Assembly: GCA_910577205.1 (NCBI GenBank)
Contig: CAJTMA010000008.1
Location: 2,575-66,574 of the forward strand
From: an uncultured Alphaproteobacteria bacterium
Lineage (GTDB): Bacteria > Pseudomonadota > Alphaproteobacteria > RF32 > CAG-239
Length of the DNA: 64,000 bases
Reading direction: 5' to 3'
The notes beneath the pieces are model-generated. The model saw nothing but the letters and a program-made list of their open reading frames with translations. It was not told where the DNA came from and searched no databases. Positions 4,157 to 49,425 of this stretch are shown in pieces; the stretch's first letter is position 1, and every line of letters begins with the position of its first letter. A program made the position numbers and the translations under genes.

Positions 4157-4891
4157 ATGGATGACGTTACCGCCGCCAAAATTTTGATAAGCTGTCTGGA
4201 CCTCACTTCTCTCGGCGAACATGACACTGAATATCAGATTGAAGATTTATGCGCCCGCGCCGAAACGCCATACGGTCACGTCGCCGCAGTTTGCATTTGG
4301 CCGCAATTCGTTGCCTTGGCAAAGAAGAAACTGAAAAAAACGCCGGTCAAAATTGCAACTGTTGTCAATTTTCCGCATGGAGGAGCTGATTTCAACAAAC
4401 TCCGCGCAGAAATCAAACAAGCGCTTAAATTCGGCGCAGACGAAATTGACGCTGTTTTTCCCTACCATGACTTTTTAGATGGCAATTTAGACACCTGCGA
4501 ACGTTTTATGGAAACAATCGTTGACAGCTGCGGCGAAGCCACAACCAAAATCATCCTGGAAACCGGAGAACTGGTTCAAGCAACCAAAATTGCAACCGCC
4601 ACACAACTATGCTTAAATCATGGTGTAGGCTTCATCAAAACCTCAACCGGCAAAACCCCGGTTTCCGCAACGCCGGAAGCCGCCAACATCATTTTGGAAA
4701 CCATAGCTTCTTCTCGCCGCAAAGCAGGCTTTAAAGCCAGCGGCGGCATTCGCACTATTGAAGATGCCAAAAAATATCTGACCTTATCCCAAACCATCAT
4801 GGGCGGCAATTGGATTTCTCCCGAACACTTGCGTATCGGAGCCAGTTCGCTGCTGGATAATCTGTTGCAAACCATCAAACAAGGATATTAA
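4157..4891 (+). CDS. deoC: Deoxyribose-phosphate aldolase
   Basis: 244 aa. It has KIILETGEL and the Schiff-base lysine motif FIKTSTGK. A 1-nt spacer separates it from punA. Confidence 0.9.
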   Translation: MDDVTAAKILISCLDLTSLGEHDTEYQIEDLCARAETPYGHVAAVCIWPQFVALAKKKLKKTPVKIATVVNFPHGGADFNKLRAEIKQALKFGADEIDAVFPYHDFLDGNLDTCERFMETIVDSCGEATTKIILETGELVQATKIATATQLCLNHGVGFIKTSTGKTPVSATPEAANIILETIASSRRKAGFKASGGIRTIEDAKKYLTLSQTIMGGNWISPEHLRIGASSLLDNLLQTIKQGY

Positions 4892-4892
4892 T

Positions 4893-6206
4893 ATGCTGCC
4901 TCAGGAAATCATTCGCAAAAAACGCAACCGCCAAACCCTGACAAGTGATGAAATTGCCGGATTTATCAATGGCATCACCGACGGAACAATCATGGATGCA
5001 CAGGCCGCTGCCTTAACAATGGCTATTTTTCTCAACGGATTAAACGCCGACGAAACCGTTGCCCTTACCATGGCTATGCGGGATTCCGGGGATGTCCTAA
5101 ACTGGCAGGAGTTTGACGCTCCGATTGTCGATAAACATTCTTCCGGCGGCGTTGGAGATAAGGTCAGCCTTATGCTTGCGCCATTATTGGCTGCCTGCGG
5201 CGTATATGTGCCGATGATTTCCGGCCGTGGCTTAGGGCACACCGGCGGAACGCTGGATAAATTCGATTCTATCCCCGGCTATCAAACCATGCCCGATAAT
5301 GACCTCTTCCGCCGCACGGTTAAAGAAGCAGGCTGCGCCATCATCGGACAAACCGGAAACCTGGCACCCGCCGACAAAAAAATTTACGCCATTCGCGATG
5401 TCTGCGGAACGGTTGAATCAGTCGAACTGATAACCGCCTCCATTCTTTCCAAAAAACTTGCTGCCGGCTTGGAATATCTGGTTATGGATTTGAAATGCGG
5501 CAACGGCGCTTTTATGGATAATCTGGAAAACGCCCGACAGCTGGCACATTCCATTGTCAAAGTTGCCAATGGCGCCGGAACTCGGACTTCCGCCCTGATT
5601 ACCGATATGAATCAGGTTCTCGGACACACCGTTGGAAATGCTTTGGAAATGGCTGAAGCCGTCGATTTCCTCAAGGGACAGAAAATCGATTCCCGACTGC
5701 GGGAAATAACGCTAGCGCTTTGCGCCGAACTCTTGGTTAATGCCCAACAGGCAGCATCTGAAAACGAAGCCCGCGCTAAATTGCAAACAGCATGGGACAG
5801 CGGCCGCGCACTGGAACATTTTGCCCGCATGGTTACCCTGCTCGGCGGCCCGGCAGACTTCTGCGACCGCCCGACACACTACTTAGCTAAAGCGGCAATC
5901 ATCCGCCCGGTCTACGCGCAACACGCCGGCTACGTCAACGCAATGCAAACCAGAGATATCGGCTTAAGCCTGATTAAACTCAAAGGCGGCCGCGTTCGCA
6001 GCGACCAAAAACTGGATTATGCTACCGGATTTACAGAATTTTGCCAAATCGGCGATTATCTTGACAGCAACAAACCGGTAGCCATCATCCACGCACAGAA
6101 CGAAAGCGATTTTGAACAAGCGGCAGCAGACCTACAGGCAGCAATTTCTCTCAACGAAACAAAGCCAACAACCACTGCCCCCGTTATTGAAAAAATTACG
6201 GCTTAA
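4893..6206 (+). CDS. deoA: Thymidine/pyrimidine-nucleoside phosphorylase
   Basis: 437 aa with the DKHSSGGVGDK and SGRGLGHTGGTLDK motifs. Confidence 0.92.
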   Translation: MLPQEIIRKKRNRQTLTSDEIAGFINGITDGTIMDAQAAALTMAIFLNGLNADETVALTMAMRDSGDVLNWQEFDAPIVDKHSSGGVGDKVSLMLAPLLAACGVYVPMISGRGLGHTGGTLDKFDSIPGYQTMPDNDLFRRTVKEAGCAIIGQTGNLAPADKKIYAIRDVCGTVESVELITASILSKKLAAGLEYLVMDLKCGNGAFMDNLENARQLAHSIVKVANGAGTRTSALITDMNQVLGHTVGNALEMAEAVDFLKGQKIDSRLREITLALCAELLVNAQQAASENEARAKLQTAWDSGRALEHFARMVTLLGGPADFCDRPTHYLAKAAIIRPVYAQHAGYVNAMQTRDIGLSLIKLKGGRVRSDQKLDYATGFTEFCQIGDYLDSNKPVAIIHAQNESDFEQAAADLQAAISLNETKPTTTAPVIEKITA

Positions 6207-18328: not shown

Positions 18329-18354
18329 AATTTAAGGATTCAATCGGATACTAC

Positions 18355-18731
18355 TATACGAGTTAAAAAACTCGGAGAATGTGGCATATAATAAGAATTA
18401 AGAGAGAAAAAAGCGCAGCATACATAGAGAAGTATGTGAGCATCTTTCCTACACGCCAATTCTGTATTAGATACCATTATACGAGTTAAAAAACTCGGAG
18501 AATGCGGCATATAATAAGAATTAAGAGAGAAAAAAGCGCAGCGTACACAAGAGTATATGAACATCTTTCCACACGCCAATTCTGTATTAGATACCATTAT
18601 ACGAGTTAAAAAACTCGGAGAATGTGGCATATAATAAGAATTAAGAAAGAAAAAAGCGCAGCGTACATAAAAGTACGTGAGCATTTTTTCTACTCGCTAA
18701 TTCTGTATTAGATGACCATTATACGAGTTTT
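18355..18731. repeat. Tandem array of 3.1 copies of a 120-123 bp unit
   Basis: The unit marker tatacgagtt recurs at 18355, 18478, 18598 and 18720. Each unit holds CGAGTTaaaaaAACTCG and a GCGCAGCGTACA..GTA(C/T)(G/A)TGA(G/A)CA hairpin. The array fills the whole HAD/lepA spacer. Confidence 0.9.
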
Positions 18732-25667: not shown

Positions 25668-25757
25668 ATTATCCCTCAACTAGCCTCGTAATTATAAAAA
25701 CTTTTTGCCGAAAAGCAAACCCTGTCTTACTTTTTTACCAAGTTTCTAAAAATAGAG

Positions 25758-25786
25758 TTGACAAAGCGTACGTTTTAGAATATGTT
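25758..25786 (+). promoter_or_regulatory. Candidate sigma70 promoter for rpmJ
   Basis: TTGACA (25758-25763), a 17-nt spacer, then TATGTT (25781-25786). Confidence 0.45.
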
Positions 25787-25817
25787 GCGGTCAAACTTAT
25801 CGTATAAGGAAAGAAAA

Positions 25818-25943
25818 ATGAAAGTATACAGTTCTTTAAAATCAAAGAAAGTACGCGATAAAGATTGCAAGGTCGTTCGTCGTAAAGGCCGCGTATATGT
25901 CATCAATAAAAAGAACCCGAAGCTCAAAGCTCGTCAAGGTTAA
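25818..25943 (+). CDS. rpmJ: 50S ribosomal protein L36
   Basis: At 41 aa it is below the ORF-track cutoff. My own translation is [41 protein letters not shown], with AAGGAAAG upstream. Confidence 0.9.
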
Positions 25944-25973
25944 TATTGATAAATTTGATTTCATGTTTTTAAA

Positions 25974-26002
25974 AAGCCCGCAGTTTTCAAGCGGGTTTTT
26001 TG
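25974..26002 (+). terminator. Intrinsic terminator after rpmJ
   Basis: GCCCGC-agttttcaa-GCGGGT followed by TTTTTTG. Confidence 0.7.
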
Positions 26003-26035
26003 TTGTATCCTAAACCATCAGAGATTAAACCCAAG

Positions 26036-26350
26036 CCTGTACTGCGCAGTAATTTTGAACGCCTCTAAACCCAAAGTTTGGATAGCGTGTGCTCAGAATA
26101 AATTTGGAGAATGAGTTGAGAGCAAGCTGGAATAAACTTGATAAAGGCCTGTGCTGCGAAGTAATTTTTTGAACGACACAACAAACTAAAAGTTTGAATA
26201 GCGTGTGCTCAGAATAAATTTGGAGAATGAGTTGAGAGCAAGCTGGAATAAACTTGATAAAGGCCTGTGCTGCGAAGTAATTTTTTGAACGACACAACAA
26301 ACTAAAAGTTTGAATAGCGTGCGCACAGAATAAATTTGGAGAATGAGTTG
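26036..26350. repeat. Tandem array of about 2.8 copies of a 112-117 bp unit
   Basis: The unit marker cctgt(a/g)ctgcg recurs at 26036, 26148 and 26265. Copies 2 and 3 are nearly identical over ~85 bp, and each unit contains aaatttggagaatgagttgag. Confidence 0.9.
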
Positions 26351-26365
26351 AGTAGTAGGCGTTGA

Positions 26366-26416
26366 GGGCGAAAGTACCGCAGCGTAGACAGACCTACGTG
26401 AGGACACTTTCGACCC
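26366..26416. repeat. Long imperfect palindrome of the dispersed hairpin-core family
   Basis: GGGCGAAAGTaCCgCAGCGTAG-acagac-CTACGTGaGGaCACTTTCGaCCC. It lies between the tandem array and the pyk stop. Confidence 0.7.
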
Positions 26417-26449
26417 GAAAACAACGCACTAATCAACCATTATACAAAT

Positions 26450-27877: not shown

Positions 27878-28043
27878 ATTATTTTATCCTTACTGTTAAA
27901 CCTTTTTATTGCCCGTAATATAACAACAAATATATTAACAAGCTATTTATTTAAACCTTTTGTCATACAAATTTATTACTTGTCAAAAAGCGCGGCCTTT
28001 GCTAAAGTCAGCGAAAACACAAATAACACAAGGAGTGACTAAA

Positions 28044-28286
28044 ATGAGTGAAGTTGGCGGTATTGCCGTAGACAGACTGCGTTCTCTGATTGAAAGAATT
28101 GAACGCCTTGAAGAAGAAAAAGCTGCGATTGCATCTGACATCCGCGACATTTTTGCCGAAGCCAAAGGCGCCGGATTTGACGTTAAAATTATGCGTACGA
28201 TTCTCAAATTGCGCAAAATGAACGCCGCCGACCGCGACGAGCAGGAAATCCTTTTGGAAACCTACCGCAAAGCTTTGGATATGTAA
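28044..28286 (+). CDS. gapR: DUF2312 / GapR-like nucleoid-associated protein
   Basis: The start is at ATG 28044 with an AGGAG SD. The 80-aa product contains LRSLIERIERLEEEKAAIASDIRDIFAEAKGAGFDVKIMR, typical of the alphaproteobacterial UPF0335 family. Confidence 0.8.
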   Translation: MSEVGGIAVDRLRSLIERIERLEEEKAAIASDIRDIFAEAKGAGFDVKIMRTILKLRKMNAADRDEQEILLETYRKALDM

Positions 28287-28289
28287 TCC

Positions 28290-28323
28290 AAAATCCCCGT
28301 TCTGACAGGAACGGGGATTTTTC
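28290..28323. terminator. Bidirectional intrinsic terminator
   Basis: ATCCCCGTTC-tgacag-GAACGGGGAT, flanked by an A-run and TTTTTC. Confidence 0.8.
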
Positions 28324-28331
28324 TACTCATA

Positions 28332-40080: not shown

Positions 40081-40227
40081 TCAACAATCCTCCGTCTGTT
40101 TGCCCGCAAGAATACGCCATTTTCAAATAAAATTCACCAAATTTAACACACCTATCAACATAAGGCTTGTATTTCTGCTGTTTTGCATTAAGATGAATGC
40201 AAATAAATGCTAATCGAGGATAAGATA

Positions 40228-40527
40228 ATGGATACAAAGGATTTTGAAACTTTTGACTTTCTGATTAATGATGAAGATGAAGTAATGCTTCTGCTGTACC
40301 AGCGCGATGGCGAACCGTCTGACCCGCATATTGAATTAGACAGCGAAGAAAAATCCGCCTTGCTCTATCGCAACAACGATGACACCTTGTTGTTAAATGA
40401 CATTAACACCGAAGTTTTTGACAGCCTGATGGATGCCGACAAACTTTTGGTCTGCGAATTATCCCGCGAAGAAAATGACGAAGAAGCCCAAATCGTTCAC
40501 GCTTATGAAGCTGAAATAAGAGATTAA
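40228..40527 (+). CDS. Small highly acidic hypothetical protein
   Basis: The start is at ATG 40228 with a GAGGA SD. The product is 99 aa and rich in D/E. Confidence 0.5.
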   Translation: MDTKDFETFDFLINDEDEVMLLLYQRDGEPSDPHIELDSEEKSALLYRNNDDTLLLNDINTEVFDSLMDADKLLVCELSREENDEEAQIVHAYEAEIRD

Positions 40528-40546
40528 ACATTAGAATAAACAATTC

Positions 40547-40571
40547 AGCCCCGCTATCGCGGGGCTTTTTT
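40547..40571. terminator. Bidirectional intrinsic terminator
   Basis: AGCCCCGC-tatc-GCGGGGCT followed by TTTTTT. Confidence 0.8.
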
Positions 40572-40579
40572 ATGCACAT

Positions 40580-41872
40580 TTACTTAATCGTAAATATCGT
40601 CTTTTTAGGCTGAGCAGTCAACATCCGCTGGATATAACGCCCTTGATACAAGTTAATACCCAAAGAGTTTCCGACTTCCACGGCTTGCGGATCATCAACC
40701 CGGCAAAGAATCATCTTTGCCCTTTCTGCCCGATTGGCATAATCGGTAAAATGGCTGTCTTCCCGCACCATATCCATAAATGACGGATGCCAGATTATCT
40801 TCAGCAAATCGCCGTTCAATTGCTCGCGGTCAATATATTTCAGCTTATCAACCGTCACCCCGTCAATACAAATTTTATAGCCGCGGTACTGGGCAAAAGT
40901 CTTTGCCAGAATAAAAGCTTTAATATCGCTGAAAATATCAACCAGCTGCAATTCCAAAACTATCGTTGACCGCATTGACGGATTAATGTTTTCATCAAAA
41001 GCCAAAAAGTCATCAGACAAGATTGTTGACACATTCAGGTTCATACTGAAATTATTAGTCAGCGAACCGTCATCATGTTGGCTGACACTGGCCAAAACGC
41101 GTTTATCCAACGTTTCCGTCAAATGCAAAAACAGCCACGGATTAGCCGTCAAATCCACATCCGGCAGCAGCATATCCCGCAAATCGGCAATAGAAACAAA
41201 CACCTCGTCAAAAATCATTTGCGGCGGTGATTTCCCGATAACGGCACAAACCGATTGGCGGCGGATAAGACTGGAGAAATCAGCCATCGCCAAAGTCTTC
41301 TGCACCTTAGCCAGCATCGCAGGGGTCAACTCCCTGCGGAGTTTGCGCGAACCGGCCATCATCGCTGCCTGCGGTGTCTTCGGCGAAACATTGCCGCCGG
41401 CGGCCAATGTCTGATTTTTCAAACTATCCATTAAAGACTGAACTGTCTTTTTAAATTCATCAACCTGCGCCGCCAAATTATAAAATTTAACAAATCCCGC
41501 TTGTTCCAAATCAAAAGCATTTTGCAGCAACGGATCATCATGAAACATAAAACGGATTTTCACCAGACAAGCCTGTATCTCTTCTCCCGAATTTTGGTGA
41601 TAAAACACCACCATATCATCATTCGGCAGCCCAAAAATTTCGCCGCCATTCTTTTTGATGACATTTTCAAAAGTTTCTATCAGACTCTGCCGTTGAAGCG
41701 TCTTAAGCTTCTGGTTTTGCAATTTGCTGAGATGAATATACAACACGCCGTAATTTGGCAGTTCCGCATCTATCTTTGCCAAATAGTCCAATATCAGCGT
41801 ATCCCGTTTAAAAGTGGAATGTTCCGTCACTTTTTCCGGCAGCTTCGGCGTTGTTTTATTAAATAAAAACAT
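40580..41872 (-). CDS. Degenerate GGDEF-like plus degenerate EAL-like protein, paralog 2
   Basis: 430 aa. The EAL-fold landmarks are retained but the catalytic residues are replaced: FDEVFV for EAL, SMNLNVS for NLS, LELQL for E.TE, ICIDGV for DDFG, LKIIW for KID, and LYQGRY for QG. The N-terminal half has GGDEF-like spacing (VLYIHLSKL..GGEIFGLPNDDMVVFY). Confidence 0.5.
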   Translation of the reverse strand: MFLFNKTTPKLPEKVTEHSTFKRDTLILDYLAKIDAELPNYGVLYIHLSKLQNQKLKTLQRQSLIETFENVIKKNGGEIFGLPNDDMVVFYHQNSGEEIQACLVKIRFMFHDDPLLQNAFDLEQAGFVKFYNLAAQVDEFKKTVQSLMDSLKNQTLAAGGNVSPKTPQAAMMAGSRKLRRELTPAMLAKVQKTLAMADFSSLIRRQSVCAVIGKSPPQMIFDEVFVSIADLRDMLLPDVDLTANPWLFLHLTETLDKRVLASVSQHDDGSLTNNFSMNLNVSTILSDDFLAFDENINPSMRSTIVLELQLVDIFSDIKAFILAKTFAQYRGYKICIDGVTVDKLKYIDREQLNGDLLKIIWHPSFMDMVREDSHFTDYANRAERAKMILCRVDDPQAVEVGNSLGINLYQGRYIQRMLTAQPKKTIFTIK

Positions 41873-41881
41873 CCCTCTTCC

Positions 41882-43165
41882 TCACAACAAATCTTCAAGA
41901 ACTTCAGGGTGGATGCAAACAGCCTTCAATGCGCCGGACAACAGCCGCCGCCTTTTCAGACATTGCTGCGCCGTACAGCCGACTGCTCCCGGACAGCGGC
42001 TGCGAACCATGGCTATTTCGATATCATCCATAAACGGCCCTTGAAAAGCGGTAATTCCGTATGAAACACCCCACTTCAGTGCCTTGTCAGAATCACACTT
42101 GGCTAAAATGACTTTCTCTTTGCCAAGCGTTTCAATGATTTCTTTCAAAGCCGGATTAAACGGTTCATCCTCAAGCAGCGGCTCCCAAAACAGCTTAACC
42201 ATATCCGGCTGCAGCGTTTTCAAATTCAACATTTTTAACGCTGCCGGACTGACACCGTCAAGAATAAGCTTATGCCCGCCCTTATGCAAAATCTCCTTGG
42301 CTTCAAAATAAAGTGGCAGATTGTTAAAGACATCTATCAGCTGCACTTCAACCAACACTTTTTGCTCCGGCTTCAAAAAGTTACGGGCAAACTCAACAAA
42401 CTCCCGCGAAAAAACTGAAGACAAATTCAGATTCAGGCTGATTTGCTGCGGCCATTTTTTCAAATCCGCCGCAAAAAAAGCAGCCAGCGTTTTCTTATCC
42501 AAAGCCTGCGTCATATACAGAAACAACCAGCGGTTTGCCACCAAATCCAAATTCCGGTCAAATTGCAGGCTTAAATCTTTAACCGCCACGAAAAACTCTT
42601 GGAACAGAACATCAAACTTGCCCACTCCCTTAATGCGGATAACGCTTTGGCGCTTTACCAACTCCGCAATATCAATCTCATCCAGCTCCGCAATTACATT
42701 ATCAATTTCTCTGGCTTCGACAGGGCGTTTCGCCGGCAGCAACTCACCGTCATTCTGCTGAACATCGCTGACCAGCATTTCTTCAACATACTTATAGAAT
42801 GTCGCAAAATTTTCCGGAAACTCAAAAACCGTGGCAAATTCGCTGCTGTCTTTGCCATGCAAAATCGGATCAGCGGAAAGCCCCTGCCGCAGCTTGGCAA
42901 CGGCCTCGTCCACGGTTTCCTGCGTAATATCCCGCCCCAGAATGACAAAATCGCCGTTTGACATAATATAAAAATAGCCGCGGGCATTCCCCACCACACT
43001 GTCAAACAGCCGCCCCAGAATTTTTACAAATTCCGGATGCCGGTGCTTTGGCTTCAGCTTAGATATGCTGACATACAAAACCGCATAGCCGTACGAATTT
43101 TTGGAAATACGGTCTAACGCATCCAATAAATACTTTTCTGCTTTGCTGCTCTGCTGTCTACTCAT
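41882..43165 (-). CDS. Degenerate GGDEF-like plus degenerate EAL-like protein, paralog 1, with a Cys-rich C-terminal tail
   Basis: 427 aa with AVLYVSISKLK..GYFYIMSNGDFVILG (GGDEF-like). The EAL-like landmarks are FQEFFV, SLNLNLS, VEVQL, LILDGV, VKLFW and AFQGPF. The tail reads CPGAVGCTAQQC..C. Confidence 0.5.
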   Translation of the reverse strand: MSRQQSSKAEKYLLDALDRISKNSYGYAVLYVSISKLKPKHRHPEFVKILGRLFDSVVGNARGYFYIMSNGDFVILGRDITQETVDEAVAKLRQGLSADPILHGKDSSEFATVFEFPENFATFYKYVEEMLVSDVQQNDGELLPAKRPVEAREIDNVIAELDEIDIAELVKRQSVIRIKGVGKFDVLFQEFFVAVKDLSLQFDRNLDLVANRWLFLYMTQALDKKTLAAFFAADLKKWPQQISLNLNLSSVFSREFVEFARNFLKPEQKVLVEVQLIDVFNNLPLYFEAKEILHKGGHKLILDGVSPAALKMLNLKTLQPDMVKLFWEPLLEDEPFNPALKEIIETLGKEKVILAKCDSDKALKWGVSYGITAFQGPFMDDIEIAMVRSRCPGAVGCTAQQCLKRRRLLSGALKAVCIHPEVLEDLL

Positions 43166-45989: not shown

Positions 45990-46018
45990 ACCCCCGCAAT
46001 CCAGCGGGGGTATTTTTT
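45990..46018. terminator. Bidirectional intrinsic terminator
   Basis: ACCCCCGC-aatcca-GCGGGGGT followed by ATTTTTT. Confidence 0.8.
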
Positions 46019-46841
46019 ACTTTTGAAACAGGCGCTTGATTTCTTTCTCTGCCGAGGAACTGAAATAAGGCTGCCATTCGTGATTGGCATTGAACCCTTT
46101 CAAACTTTGTATGGCTTTTTCCCGTATTTCCCCACAGTTCATCCAGGCATCAATCACTGACAAGTTGCCAAGATTAAACAGGGCTTGCTGAAGTTCTTCG
46201 GGCCAAACCATTTCGTCAATGATTTTCACAATCTCATCAACAGACAAACAGTTTCTATTCATCGGCTCGATATAACACTCAGGATAGCCGTTCCAATCAG
46301 AAAAAACATCAAACCTGATAATCTTTGGCAGCAGATGTTCATTCAGAAGTTCCGCTTTTCCGCGAAGTTCATCATACGCAGCAATTAATTCATCATTGCC
46401 GCAGAACATCAGAGCCACATAAGCTTCTTGGGACAGACCAAAATGCAGCAATTCTCTTTCCACCCAGTAGCCAATTCCCCAGTCATCCAATATGCTATAC
46501 GGAATACTGACCGTCAGCGCCTTGGCAAAATTAGACTGCGAAAACCGGAAAAAGCGATAGCGAAATATTTTCCTGTTGCCGCTCTGAATAAGAGCCGGAA
46601 GCATAGAATCTTTAAATGCTCCCTGATGAATAAGTTTTTTCAAAGCTTTGTTGTTACGCGCCTTGATGTATTCCATAACCGTCGCATCACAAACTTCTTC
46701 TGCATTTTTCTGTTCGGGTTTTTCCTTTTTTAGAAAAGCACCCAATAAACTAAAATAATTCATTTCTTTTAATTTTAAGATTAAACATAATAAGAATAAA
46801 TCAAAGGAACTATACTTCCGCCGCCCGAATTTGTCAAACAT
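46017..46841 (-). CDS. Hypothetical protein
   Basis: 274-aa ORF in a rather A+T-rich stretch. The start is uncertain (an internal MNYFSLLGAF is possible). I recognise no motif. Confidence 0.45.
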   Translation of the reverse strand: MFDKFGRRKYSSFDLFLLCLILKLKEMNYFSLLGAFLKKEKPEQKNAEEVCDATVMEYIKARNNKALKKLIHQGAFKDSMLPALIQSGNRKIFRYRFFRFSQSNFAKALTVSIPYSILDDWGIGYWVERELLHFGLSQEAYVALMFCGNDELIAAYDELRGKAELLNEHLLPKIIRFDVFSDWNGYPECYIEPMNRNCLSVDEIVKIIDEMVWPEELQQALFNLGNLSVIDAWMNCGEIREKAIQSLKGFNANHEWQPYFSSSAEKEIKRLFQK

Positions 46842-47047: not shown

Positions 47048-47758
47048 TCAAACATATTGAGAAATAGCTTGCTCTGCGGCAGCTGTCGCATGGCACTCCA
47101 GCGTATTAAACAACGGAATATCCGTATCACCTTGCATCACCAGCAGCGGAATTTCCGTACATCCTAAGATGATACCCTCAACACCCTGCTTCCTGACTAA
47201 ATCGCTGATAACCGCCAGAAAATACATCTTTGAGCTGCCCAAAATCTCATTCCGGCACAATTCCTCAAAAATTATGCGATCGATCTCCTGACAAGCCTCA
47301 TCAGAGGGAATAACGGTTTCTATGCCCATCTGTGCCAGCCGCTCACGATAAAACGTTTCCTTCATCGTAAAACGCGTTCCTAACAAACCAACTTTTTTCA
47401 GCCCGGCATTTTGAATTGCCGTTCCCACCGTATCCGCAATATGCAAAATTTTATGACCACCGACTTCCAGCGTTTCAGCAACTTTATGCATCGTATTTGA
47501 ACAAATGAGAATGAAATCAACTTCCCGAAGAAAAACATCGGCATGATAGCGCAAATAAGCTCCCAGCTCATCCCATTTCTCTTGCTGCTGAATGGCTTCA
47601 ATCACCGCCATATCCAAACTGTCCAGTAAAATTTCCGCGGAATGAGTTCCACCTAAACTCAGATTAACTGTTTCATTGATAATCCGGTAATACTCCAGCG
47701 TCGAAGGCCAAGCCATTCCGCCCAGCAATCCGATTTTCAACATTTTTGTTTCACACAT
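47048..47758 (-). CDS. Aspartate/glutamate racemase family protein
   Basis: 236 aa with IGLLGGMAWPST, ICSNTMH and LGCTEIPLL, which are the two catalytic Cys motifs. Confidence 0.8.
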   Translation of the reverse strand: MCETKMLKIGLLGGMAWPSTLEYYRIINETVNLSLGGTHSAEILLDSLDMAVIEAIQQQEKWDELGAYLRYHADVFLREVDFILICSNTMHKVAETLEVGGHKILHIADTVGTAIQNAGLKKVGLLGTRFTMKETFYRERLAQMGIETVIPSDEACQEIDRIIFEELCRNEILGSSKMYFLAVISDLVRKQGVEGIILGCTEIPLLVMQGDTDIPLFNTLECHATAAAEQAISQYV

Positions 47759-47865
47759 ATTGTTTGATTTTAATGAATAATATGAAAATAATAAAAATAT
47801 GCTCTTTAATTACTAAATATCCAGCAGCTTGTCAACGTTTAACAACTGCTAACCAAAGTTGAAAC

Positions 47866-48517
47866 TTATTGCTCCCCCCACCTTCTCTTTCCATCTTAAA
47901 CATTCCCTCTTCATCTCAACAACTCCCTTTTCTCCTCTACTGCCTCCCCCCCTCCTCGCAACTCCCCCTCTCATCACCTCTGCAAACTCTCCCTTTACCC
48001 TGCCACAATTCTCTCTTCCAACCCGACAAACACCATCCTGTCCGGCAATTCCCCCACTCACCGTTCCTATAAACGCCATCCTCTCCTGCAGCTCTCCCTC
48101 TCTTCGTCCCTGCAAGCTCTTTCCTCCCCGACTGCTATTCCATCGTTCACAACACGTTCTCTCCCCTCTCCCTATTATCTCCCCTTACCAACACTCTCTC
48201 CGACAAAACATTCTCTTTTCTCATCCCACAAACTCTCCCTTTACCCTGCCACAATTCCCTCTTCCAATCCGACAAACGCCATCCTCTCCCGCGACTTTCA
48301 TTCTCTTCATCCCTACAAACACCTCTCCGCCTCGCGACGACAATTTCCTCTCACCCCTGCAAGCTCTTTCCTCCCCGACTGCTATTCCATCGCTCACAAC
48401 ACGTTCTCTCCCCTCTCCCGATGATAACTCCCTTGCCCCTCTCCCCTACAAACATCCTCTTTTTCCCTGCCACAACAAACGATCCTCTCTTCCCGACAAA
48501 GCTTTCTTTCACACCAC
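47866..48517. repeat. C-rich, G-poor tract (plus strand) containing ~246-bp tandem repeats
   Basis: 47983-48043 matches 48229-48289 with 4 mismatches in 61. 48108-48172 matches 48355-48419 with 1 mismatch. A third partial block lies near 48462. By hand count the tract has only ~43 G in ~640 nt. Confidence 0.85.
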
Positions 48518-48547
48518 AAAAAAAGGAGTCCTCTCGGACTCCTTTTT
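48518..48547. terminator. Intrinsic terminator after rplQ (bidirectional shape)
   Basis: AAAAAAA-GGAGTCC-tctc-GGACTCC-TTTTT. Confidence 0.8.
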
Positions 48548-48568
48548 AATACCATTTCTCTAACTGAA

Positions 48569-49015
48569 TTAGTTGGCAGCAGCTTCTTTTTCAGCAGCTT
48601 CGGCAACAGCTTTTTCTGCAGCGACGCGAGCTTTATCAGCAGCGCCTTTAGCTGCAACATCGCGTTCAACCAGTTCAATAATTGCCATCGGAGCAGCATC
48701 GCCATAACGAATGCCAGCTTTCAAAACGCGGGTATAACCGCCGTTGCGGCCTTTATAACGTTCAGCCAAGGTGGAGAAAAGTTTGGAAACAACAGTTTCA
48801 TCACGCAAGAAAGCCAATGCCAGTCTGCGGCTGTTCAAATCACCTTTTTTGGCATAAGTAATCATGTTGTCAGCAAAAGTTCTCAATTCTTTAGCACGCG
48901 GCAGGGTAATATTAATCTGTTCGTGTGTCAGCAAAGCATTTGTCAGGTTAGAGAACAAAGCTCTTCTCTGGCTTCTCGGCATATTTAATTTTCTATGTTT
49001 CATTCCATGTCTCAT
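48569..49015 (-). CDS. rplQ: 50S ribosomal protein L17
   Basis: 148 aa, beginning [24 protein letters not shown], with an Ala/Glu-rich C-terminal tail. Confidence 0.95.
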
Positions 49016-49154
49016 GACATATTCCTTTCTTTTCTCTGTGCTTTGCTAGGCAAAGCGGATAAAACATTTGCTCCCGCCACGGTTTCGACGCTCGCTCATG
49101 CACGGAAACACTTAATTCGGAACTGTTTCTAACATACAATATTCTGAATTGCAA

Positions 49155-49200
49155 GCAAAAAAGAAAGGATTAAAACCACTATTCAATCTTTTCTTTTTGC
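49155..49200. repeat. Long A/T-rich hairpin in the rpoA-rplQ spacer
   Basis: GCAAAAAAGAAAGGATT-13 nt-AATCTTTTCTTTTTGC, with about 16 paired positions. Confidence 0.45.
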
Positions 49201-49293
49201 CAAGTTTAGCCATCAAGACAGAGTTACGTTTGAACCATAGATATCCTCAGCTAAGCCCCAAATACTATCCTGGCTGCAAATCTAGCTGTTTAA

Positions 49294-49311
49294 CTACGCT
49301 GGTGAGCGTAG
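49294..49311. repeat. GCGTAG-core hairpin (dispersed family, inverted orientation)
   Basis: CTACGCT-ggtg-AGCGTAG. A CGAGTaaACTCG mini-hairpin at 49342-49354 resembles the one in the 18.4-kb array. Confidence 0.4.
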
Positions 49312-49375
49312 AGCGTCGTCTAACGTCCCTTAACATTAGCCCCGAGTAAACTCGATTTTTCTGTACAACAACAAT

Positions 49376-49409
49376 AAAAAAACTCCCTTGCAGATAACTG
49401 TAAGGGAGT
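49376..49409 (-). terminator. Intrinsic terminator after rpoA
   Basis: On the minus strand: ACTCCCTT-acagttatctgc-AAGGGAGT followed by TTTTTT. Confidence 0.8.
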
Positions 49410-49425
49410 TTCAATAACTTGCCAA

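Follow-up and report, generated by a model that had tools for sequence, protein, structure and literature searches.

A strand-asymmetric intergenic minisatellite with the composition of a Rho-utilization region behind rplQ in an uncultured gut alphaproteobacterium

Introduction

Why should the DNA behind a ribosomal protein gene be almost free of G on one of its strands? The question is posed by positions 47866-48517 of a 64-kb stretch of DNA from an uncultured human-gut alphaproteobacterium; we refer to the whole stretch as the window, to which coordinates apply unless a related locus is named, and to the 652 nt in question as the tract. An earlier note on this DNA had placed the tract after the terminator of rplQ, the gene of ribosomal protein L17, and before a gene of the Asp/Glu racemase family, and this context holds. 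We find that the tract is a non-coding, strand-asymmetric minisatellite spacer in which a degenerate ~22-nt unit has been amplified into units of 246/247 nt or, in other strains, of 166 nt. Transcription of its plus strand would yield an RNA of the kind preferred by Rho, and we tentatively favor the view that the tract serves as a direction-selective Rho barrier, to which we assign, from the sequence, a probability of about 0.4.

Results

Base composition and skew

The plus strand of the tract consists of 124 A, 297 C (45.6%), 43 G (6.6%) and 188 T, so that an earlier hand count of about 43 G, with C as the commonest base, was accurate. The minus strand, which is the sense strand of rplQ, is correspondingly purine-rich (74% purine; G 45.6%, A 28.8%, T 19.0%, C 6.6%), and no other 600-nt stretch of the window is as low in G or as strongly skewed between purines and pyrimidines. 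Measured as %C-%G in 78-nt windows, the excess of C over G is 39% on average within the tract, where it stays at 30.8% or higher, whereas in the rest of the window it averages 6.4 +/- 7.1 and reaches a maximum of 29.5. The tract also stands apart from the other intergenic DNA of the window in its minus-strand GC skew (+0.75 vs +0.11, range -0.11 to +0.41) and in its GC content (52% vs 25-47%). The earlier impression that nothing comparable occurs elsewhere in the window was thus well founded: no other intergenic region is similar, and the skew of the tract tops the entire 64 kb. Because the tract is 100% identical across three independent assemblies, it is not an assembly artefact.

Could this composition simply reflect the mutational background? 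The window as a whole displays a strong strand asymmetry of the replication type. Read on the minus strand, the GC skew at third codon positions is +0.36 for plus-strand genes and +0.20 for minus-strand genes, which implies that the minus strand is probably the leading strand and that antisense RNAs of minus-strand genes generally contain more C than G. This background does not explain the tract, in which an excess of A over T opposes the excess of T over A at third positions of minus-strand genes (plus-strand genes show a slight excess of A over T, with an AT skew of +0.05). An origin by C-to-T deamination of the non-template strand was rejected as well, because it predicts a T-rich sense strand, whereas the tract is poor in T, with A exceeding T, and because the G excess of the tract lies far beyond the skew at third positions.

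Repeat architecture

How is such a composition laid out along the tract? Seed extension revealed a 95-nt block that recurs at a spacing of 246 nt with 81% identity and a 71-nt block that recurs at a spacing of 247 nt with 96% identity. These blocks (47983-48077 and 48108-48178, respectively) belong to a first higher-order unit of 246 nt at 47983-48228, which is followed by a second unit of 247 nt at 48229-48475, both assigned to the minus strand; a third copy is present in the form of 15-nt fragments. Repeats of ~246 bp, with two units and a third partial one, had been noted before, and they were recovered here. A BLAST comparison of the tract with itself gave a match of 256 nt at 79.7% identity with 13 gap openings. 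Tandem Repeats Finder reported nothing in the tract, probably because it holds just ~2.6 diverged copies.

Beneath these units lies a finer order that the earlier note had missed. Pyrimidine positions of the minus strand recur with a sub-period of ~22.25 nt (power 22.4 vs a 95% null of 7.5), which is detectable inside a single unit too, and since 246 nt corresponds to roughly 11 x 22.4 nt, the 246-nt unit comprises about eleven degenerate sub-units of ~22 nt. On the minus strand, each roughly follows the pattern GTTTGT-N-GGG and then a purine run of 10-17 nt, that is, a T-rich island, a group of G's and purines. Accordingly, the tract contains GTTTGT six times (0.4 expected) and GGGAGAG nine times (1.1 expected). 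An expectation-maximization motif search of the tract returned only this low-information pattern of purine run, T island and G run, worth ~6 bits, and no specific binding site. The FtsK-orienting KOPS motif (GGGNAGGG) and Chi-like recombination-hotspot motifs were inspected by eye only, and BLAST found nothing similar to the tract in collections of plasmids and phages.

Variation between strains

Alleles from related strains, which we denote by the labels given to the loci and contigs compared with the window (L001-L173), differ widely in length and layout. Relative to the 652-nt tract of the window, which serves as the reference, the L173 allele is colinear and 95% identical with five indels, and the L085 allele measures 405 nt, being exactly one 247-nt unit (unit 2) shorter in a clean 247-nt alignment gap, a difference that could also stem from the collapse of a short-read assembly. 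L089, L090 and L091 carry a 969-nt allele that consists of 3.3 copies of a 166-nt unit, and L092 presents a further arrangement. The homopolymer C7 at 47946-47952 (G7 on the minus strand) counts eight residues in L085 (alignment column 618), which may be a real length polymorphism produced by slippage or a sequencing error. In several short-read assemblies of the species (L083, L086, L087 and L088), contigs break off within the tract, at or close to the 71-nt block of 96% identity.

The flanks of these alleles are far more uniform. Between L089 and the window, the terminator is 100%, the promoter region 97% and the genes are 98-99% identical, with a synonymous divergence (dS) of 0.012-0.066, whereas the best colinear block of the tract diverges by 7.4%, a value close to the synonymous rate or somewhat higher. 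The ratio of transitions to transversions within the tract is ordinary (1.2-2.8), and changes between purines and pyrimidines occur freely. What all strain alleles do keep is their base composition, with A at.29, C at.06-.08, G at.44-.46 and T at.19-.21 on the minus strand. With head-to-tail units and a unit number that is polymorphic among close strains (the 405-nt allele counting with the caveat of a possible collapse), the tract conforms to a minisatellite or variable-number tandem repeat (VNTR). It behaves as an unstable minisatellite without sequence constraint: units are gained and lost, point changes accumulate at roughly the neutral rate, and nothing but base composition and orientation is inherited.

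These properties would also suit functionless repeat DNA with a fast turnover. According to this alternative, replication slippage and unequal recombination multiplied a purine-rich segment of ~21 nt by the hairpin, at a point where synteny breaks off between the core ribosomal operon and variable DNA, and the composition was inherited from the seed unit. The variation in length and repeat architecture between flanks of 98-99% identity, the 7.4% divergence of the colinear block compared with a dS of 0.04-0.07 in the flanking genes, the normal spectrum of substitutions and the ~6 bits of the unit motif all fit this view. So does the apparent resemblance between the repeat unit and the first ~20 nt past the hairpin (TTTGTGGTGTGAAAGAAAGC), which might represent the seed, and the genome tolerates other large intergenic regions. 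We regard a functionless origin as nearly as likely as a Rho barrier; the main observations that speak against it come from other lineages.

Distribution in relatives

If the sequence is free to change, is anything about the tract shared more widely? We surveyed ~55 related loci for stretches with |GC skew| >= 0.6; the best matches of L17 are metagenome-assembled genomes (MAGs) from gut and rumen. Synteny among relatives does not extend downstream of rplQ, and in the nearest other species, represented by L001-L003 (95% L17 identity) and L093-L096 (87% nucleotide identity), both the tract and the racemase gene are missing from this region. The earlier note had held that absence from close relatives would mark the tract as a junk expansion; the nearest species do lack it, and a junk expansion is to that extent alive, in line with the functionless origin described above.

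Strongly skewed stretches were found in three further loci. In L009, a tract of 291 nt with a period of 30.5 nt directly follows the rplQ terminator. L014 (2700-2975) and L015 (2690-2975) carry orthologous tracts of ~280 nt without internal repeats, directly after the rpoA terminator. All three are composed much like the tract of the window (A.27-.31, C.07-.12, G.41-.44, T.14-.22), and in all three the G-rich strand is the sense strand of the operon. A metagenome scan with L17 yielded no new tract-bearing species. Homology between the tracts of different lineages was considered and rejected, because they share no more k-mers than expected from a first-order Markov null. Even the orthologous tracts have drifted far apart: between L014 and L015, for which dS is 0.21-0.36, the terminator and the downstream AT-rich region are 87-89% identical, whereas identity drops to 66% in the tract cores and hardly exceeds the 60.5 +/- 1.7 of the shuffle null. 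Thus, composition, orientation and position recur between lineages, and sequence does not. With regard to the earlier proposal to look in relatives for conservation of the tract as opposed to mere composition, composition and orientation do recur, and conservation of sequence is absent.

This recurrence is difficult to reconcile with a purely neutral origin. An extreme composition in a fixed orientation reappears after rpoA and rplQ terminators in lineages that are too diverged for neutral retention; it is found nowhere else in the ~1 Mb of sampled relatives, nor in any other intergenic region of the window. Moreover, slippage alone is insufficient, because L014 and L015 show the composition without internal repeats.

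The surroundings of these tracts differ. The tract of L009, read along its C-rich strand, comes immediately after the stop codon of a convergent gene for which no hairpin terminator is obvious, and a promoter-like site lies just upstream of the tract on the G-rich strand. In L014 and L015, the tract is followed by an AT-rich, promoter-like region and then by an open reading frame (ORF) of 210 aa without a Pfam match (L015 3176-3808), which is inserted between rpoA and rplQ. L015 also has a cold-shock-like gene (4781-4982) downstream of rplQ, and behind this gene a stretch that is likewise rich in G and poor in C, though to a lesser degree (C 12%, G 39%).

Rho-utilization features of the plus strand

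What might a composition without a conserved sequence be good for? Rho prefers unstructured RNA that is rich in C and poor in G, at least 70-80 nt long and with C residues at regular intervals (PMC6407284). For Escherichia coli and Salmonella, Rho-dependent termination was observed in vitro with all templates tested whose C>G bubble exceeded 78 bp, and in the E. coli model, G-rich motifs of the non-template strand weigh against termination by Rho (PMC6144790). Following the bubble criterion of the latter study, we found that the C>G bubble on the plus strand of the tract spans more than 570 positions of the 78-nt window, compared with the required ~78 nt, and that its area is the largest in the window. 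The plus strand contains 220 YC dimers, of which the longest chain with (YC)N9-13 spacing has 20 links, at least four YC dimers being the criterion applied. Its RNA is little structured, having a minimum free energy of -27.1 kcal/mol per 652 nt (z -0.26), and its C/G ratio is 6.9. The earlier description of the plus-strand RNA as bearing the C-rich, G-poor hallmark of Rho utilization therefore stands with respect to the bubble, the YC dimers and the low structure.

Coding potential

The composition of the plus strand has another consequence. A frame of 234 codons (47859-48563) is open on it, and gene callers have predicted a gene there on other contigs, which raises the question of whether the tract encodes a Pro/Ser/Leu-rich protein. 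We attach next to no probability to this idea. Stop codons are scarce on a strand with so little G simply because of its composition. The period-3 score of the tract is 0.74 (null 0.65), whereas rplQ, the racemase gene and rpoA score 5.2-10.6, and Pfam gave no match for the tract on either strand. Because the offsets of the repeats are 246 and 247 nt, the copies fall into different frames, and the alleles of strains differ by frame-shifting indels. A search with the translated frame returned three matches, all of them the same locus in other strains and with frame-shifted ends. The frame itself starts with TTG, lacks a Shine-Dalgarno sequence and passes through the terminator hairpin, and in the analogous tract of L009 the C-rich strand is not open. 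We conclude that the tract is non-coding and that its plus-strand RNA is probably untranslated.

Motifs of the minus-strand RNA

Does the function reside in the opposite strand instead? The minus strand contains 46 GGA trinucleotides, along with four copies of A[GC]AGGATG[GT] and one AGGATC, in agreement with the earlier counts (~45 GGA and the exact numbers of the longer motifs), and it had been proposed that its RNA acts as a sponge, similar to CsrB or RsmY, for CsrA or another RNA-binding protein. Judged against dinucleotide shuffles (500 each for GGA and GGATG), the GGA content shows no excess over composition (40.6 +/- 4.2 in shuffles, with 59/500 reaching 46), and neither does that of ANGGA (14 vs 11.4) or AGGA (12 vs 13.5). 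GGATG, which would favor a sponge, occurs six times vs 2.8 in shuffles, 27/500 of which reach this number, but its copies are partly duplicates of each other inside the repeat units. Only 3/46 GGA fall into small hairpin loops (<=12 nt) of the minimum-free-energy structure. Rfam has no match in the tract, from Csr/Rsm or any other family, at gathering score or at E<=10. On the minus strand, the interval from the rplQ hairpin to the tract lacks a promoter-like site and the distal end of the tract lacks a terminator-like one, so that an RNA of this kind would have neither a promoter nor a terminator of its own, and the sequence is not conserved between strains. We consequently deem the proposed sponge extremely unlikely. 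Binding of Hfq through (ARN)n or (AG)n motifs was rejected likewise, these motifs not being enriched, and so was the notion of a ribosome sponge, because the Shine-Dalgarno-like AGGAG and GGAGG are depleted in the tract.

Non-B DNA

A locus with 74% purine on one strand that is structurally unstable between strains might also act as DNA, by adopting a non-B conformation (H-DNA triplex, G-quadruplex or i-motif) and thereby obstructing polymerases or stimulating recombination. The canonical signatures of such structures, of which triplex and i-motif had been suggested earlier, failed to appear. The tract has no homopurine mirror repeat with arms of at least 9 nt, its longest purine run of 17 nt is shorter than the shuffle mean of 20.8, and it has no quadruplex motif of the G3+N1-7 type (0 vs 0.6 in shuffles), which means that the C-rich strand has no matching i-motif either. 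A literature search for polypurine or intrastrand-triplex repeats led to a different class, triplex motifs made of G/C runs (PMC4666352), which does not apply here. We consider a non-B function very unlikely.

Genomic setting and neighboring features

All genes around the tract lie on the minus strand, in the order rpoA, rplQ, tract and racemase gene. rpoA (50436-49426) has a hairpin terminator of its own at ~49378-49412 (-18.4 kcal/mol). rplQ (48569-49015), the last gene before the tract, is an ORF of 148 aa, for which Pfam Ribosomal_L17 is recorded with the identical product of other contigs. Behind it lies a bidirectional intrinsic terminator at 48513-48547, a 12-bp hairpin with the GC-rich 7-bp core GGAGUCC/GGACUCC that ends in a U7 run on the minus strand and a U5 run on the plus strand. 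It folds with -19.9 kcal/mol on the minus strand (z -4.9) and -17.7 kcal/mol on the plus strand (z -6.8) and is 100% conserved in all strain variants. A consensus terminator scan did not list this hairpin, presumably because the T-run is consumed where A/U pairs extend the stem.

On its other side, the tract borders on an AT-rich inter-promoter region of 107 nt (47759-47865; 97% conserved in L089) and then on the racemase-family gene (47048-47758, minus strand; PF01177, E 6.6e-32). Within this region, a candidate racemase promoter can be read by eye on the minus strand, with TTGACA at 47835-47830, a 17-nt spacer and TAATTA at 47812-47807. As this candidate sits downstream of the tract, the tract would not be a racemase leader, as had also been suggested, but a spacer between two transcription units. 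A sigma-70-like site at 47764-47792 on the plus strand (TTGATT-17-AATAAT) points into the C-rich strand.

Given this setting, the purine-rich minus strand could be functional in another manner. Read-through RNA, rich in G and poor in C, might form R-loops (RNA:DNA hybrids of high stability) or pause arrays that insulate the downstream promoter, or it might provide a Rho-proof linker to the racemase gene. The tracts always begin ~0-70 nt from the terminator of an operon with very high expression and extend to the following promoter or gene, the effect of G-rich non-template motifs on Rho in E. coli points in the same direction, and the promoter-like site of L009 is placed suitably for transcription of the G-rich strand. 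Little read-through is expected past the strong terminator, there is no promoter in front of the tract of the window, canonical quadruplex motifs are absent and purine runs are shorter than random, and we found no bacterial precedent for the mechanism. A role of the sense strand hence appears quite improbable to us.

Several other segments of the window attracted our attention. The 410-nt spacer between rpoA and rplQ (49016-49425) is divided in two: the ~150 nt that precede the rplQ start (~49016-49165) show 73-90% identity across more than 40 related loci, whereas the first ~260 nt are species-specific. Judging from this pattern, the conserved segment looks like an rplQ promoter or leader, for which Rfam gave no match. 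Two consecutive minus-strand ORFs of ~430 aa each (40580-41872 and 41882-43165) and a 274-aa ORF adjoining the racemase gene (46017-46841) have no Pfam match at E<=1e-5. Stretches of 400-770 nt with neither an ORF of at least 110 aa nor an Rfam or tRNA match occur at 25680-26449, 40081-40579, 27878-28331 and 18329-18731, and all four are of ordinary composition.

Discussion

How might the tract work as a barrier to transcription? We envision that it would act through its composition alone and in one direction only. An RNA that runs along the plus strand from the racemase promoter region toward the tail of the ribosomal-protein/rpoA operon would, with ~46% C, 7% G and little structure, offer an ideal loading surface for Rho, and divergent or stray antisense transcription might be halted before the bidirectional hairpin or together with it. 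Read-through RNA from rplQ on the minus strand, being rich in G and poor in C, would conversely be a poor substrate for Rho. In L009, the incoming transcription could originate from the convergent gene that lacks a hairpin of its own. Because Rho needs composition rather than sequence, a tract of this kind would be free to drift, expand and contract.

The Rho reading is compatible with every sequence test that we ran, and it is unproven. A number of observations weigh against it. The promoter scan gave three sites where 4.1 are expected from shuffles; the site at 47764-47792, the sole promoter-like match that leads into the plus strand, is therefore within chance. A Rho site would be partly redundant, because the hairpin at 48513-48547 terminates in both directions. 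About 80 nt are enough for Rho, which leaves the length of 400-970 nt and the 22-nt period unexplained. Rho domains were absent from the ten large ORFs scanned in the 64-kb window. The ordinary ratio of transitions to transversions and the free exchange of purines and pyrimidines give no site-level sign of selection on the tract. Tracts are absent from the nearest other species and from most relatives with a co-oriented downstream gene, and because L014 and L015 are orthologous, the recurrence comprises only three independent lineages, which is numerically weak. Finally, the rule that the G-rich strand is the sense strand of the operon is confounded with the direction of replication in a strongly skewed genome.

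From a broader perspective, the Rho barrier might be one instance of a composition-encoded transcriptional diode at the 3' end of the ribosomal-protein/rpoA super-operon in a clade of gut Alphaproteobacteria. Such a diode would consist of a minisatellite that renews itself, with a pyrimidine strand that places Rho on any transcription toward the operon and a purine strand that is Rho-proof; it would be kept by selection on composition and orientation only, and several lineages would have acquired or retained it independently behind their rplQ and rpoA terminators. We think that this more general proposal is rather unlikely in its entirety. If composition is indeed all that counts, the tract would be an example of functional non-coding DNA in which composition and orientation are conserved instead of sequence, and thus a representative of a class that is invisible to annotation based on homology or covariance. 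It would also supply a natural, extreme substrate for the policing of antisense transcription by Rho at the ends of highly expressed operons, beyond the model organisms. If the tract is neutral, it would still constitute a hypervariable marker beside a universally conserved gene, able to separate strains of an uncultured gut bacterium, and a predictable break point of short-read assemblies next to rplQ.

Where does the tract stand among known systems? It is real, we found no earlier description of it, and it is best filed as a strand-asymmetric intergenic minisatellite with the composition of a Rho-utilization (rut) region. As in the rut regions and C>G bubbles of E. coli, Salmonella and Bacillus subtilis, where Rho suppresses antisense transcription, the RNA of the tract is C-rich, G-poor, dominated by pyrimidines and unstructured, with many YC dimers 9-13 nt apart. 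No sequence consensus is required in either case, and the tract sits where antisense or convergent transcription would enter the tail of an operon. Unlike those regions, it is 5-12x longer than required, built from tandem repeats, hypervariable in length between strains, far more skewed (by the C/G ratio given above) and located beside a bidirectional intrinsic terminator, and it is known from its sequence alone.

With bacterial minisatellites and VNTRs, such as the mycobacterial MIRU-type loci, the tract shares an intergenic head-to-tail array in which unit number varies and assemblies break or collapse. It differs from them in its extreme strand asymmetry, in the very degenerate ~22-nt unit that is nested in higher-order units and in the analogous, non-homologous tracts that occupy the same kind of site in other species. 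Like CsrB, CsrC and RsmX/Y/Z, its minus-strand RNA is purine-rich and contains dozens of GGA, but these remain at the level set by composition, lie largely outside hairpin loops and match no covariance model, and the tract has neither a transcription unit of its own nor a conserved sequence. Immunoglobulin switch regions, in which G-rich repeats of the non-template strand form R-loops or G-loops when transcribed, provide a further parallel. There, too, G is strongly enriched on the non-template strand of long and degenerate tandem repeats that lie downstream of a strongly transcribed unit, whereas the present tract is bacterial, lies behind a strong terminator and does without canonical quadruplex motifs.

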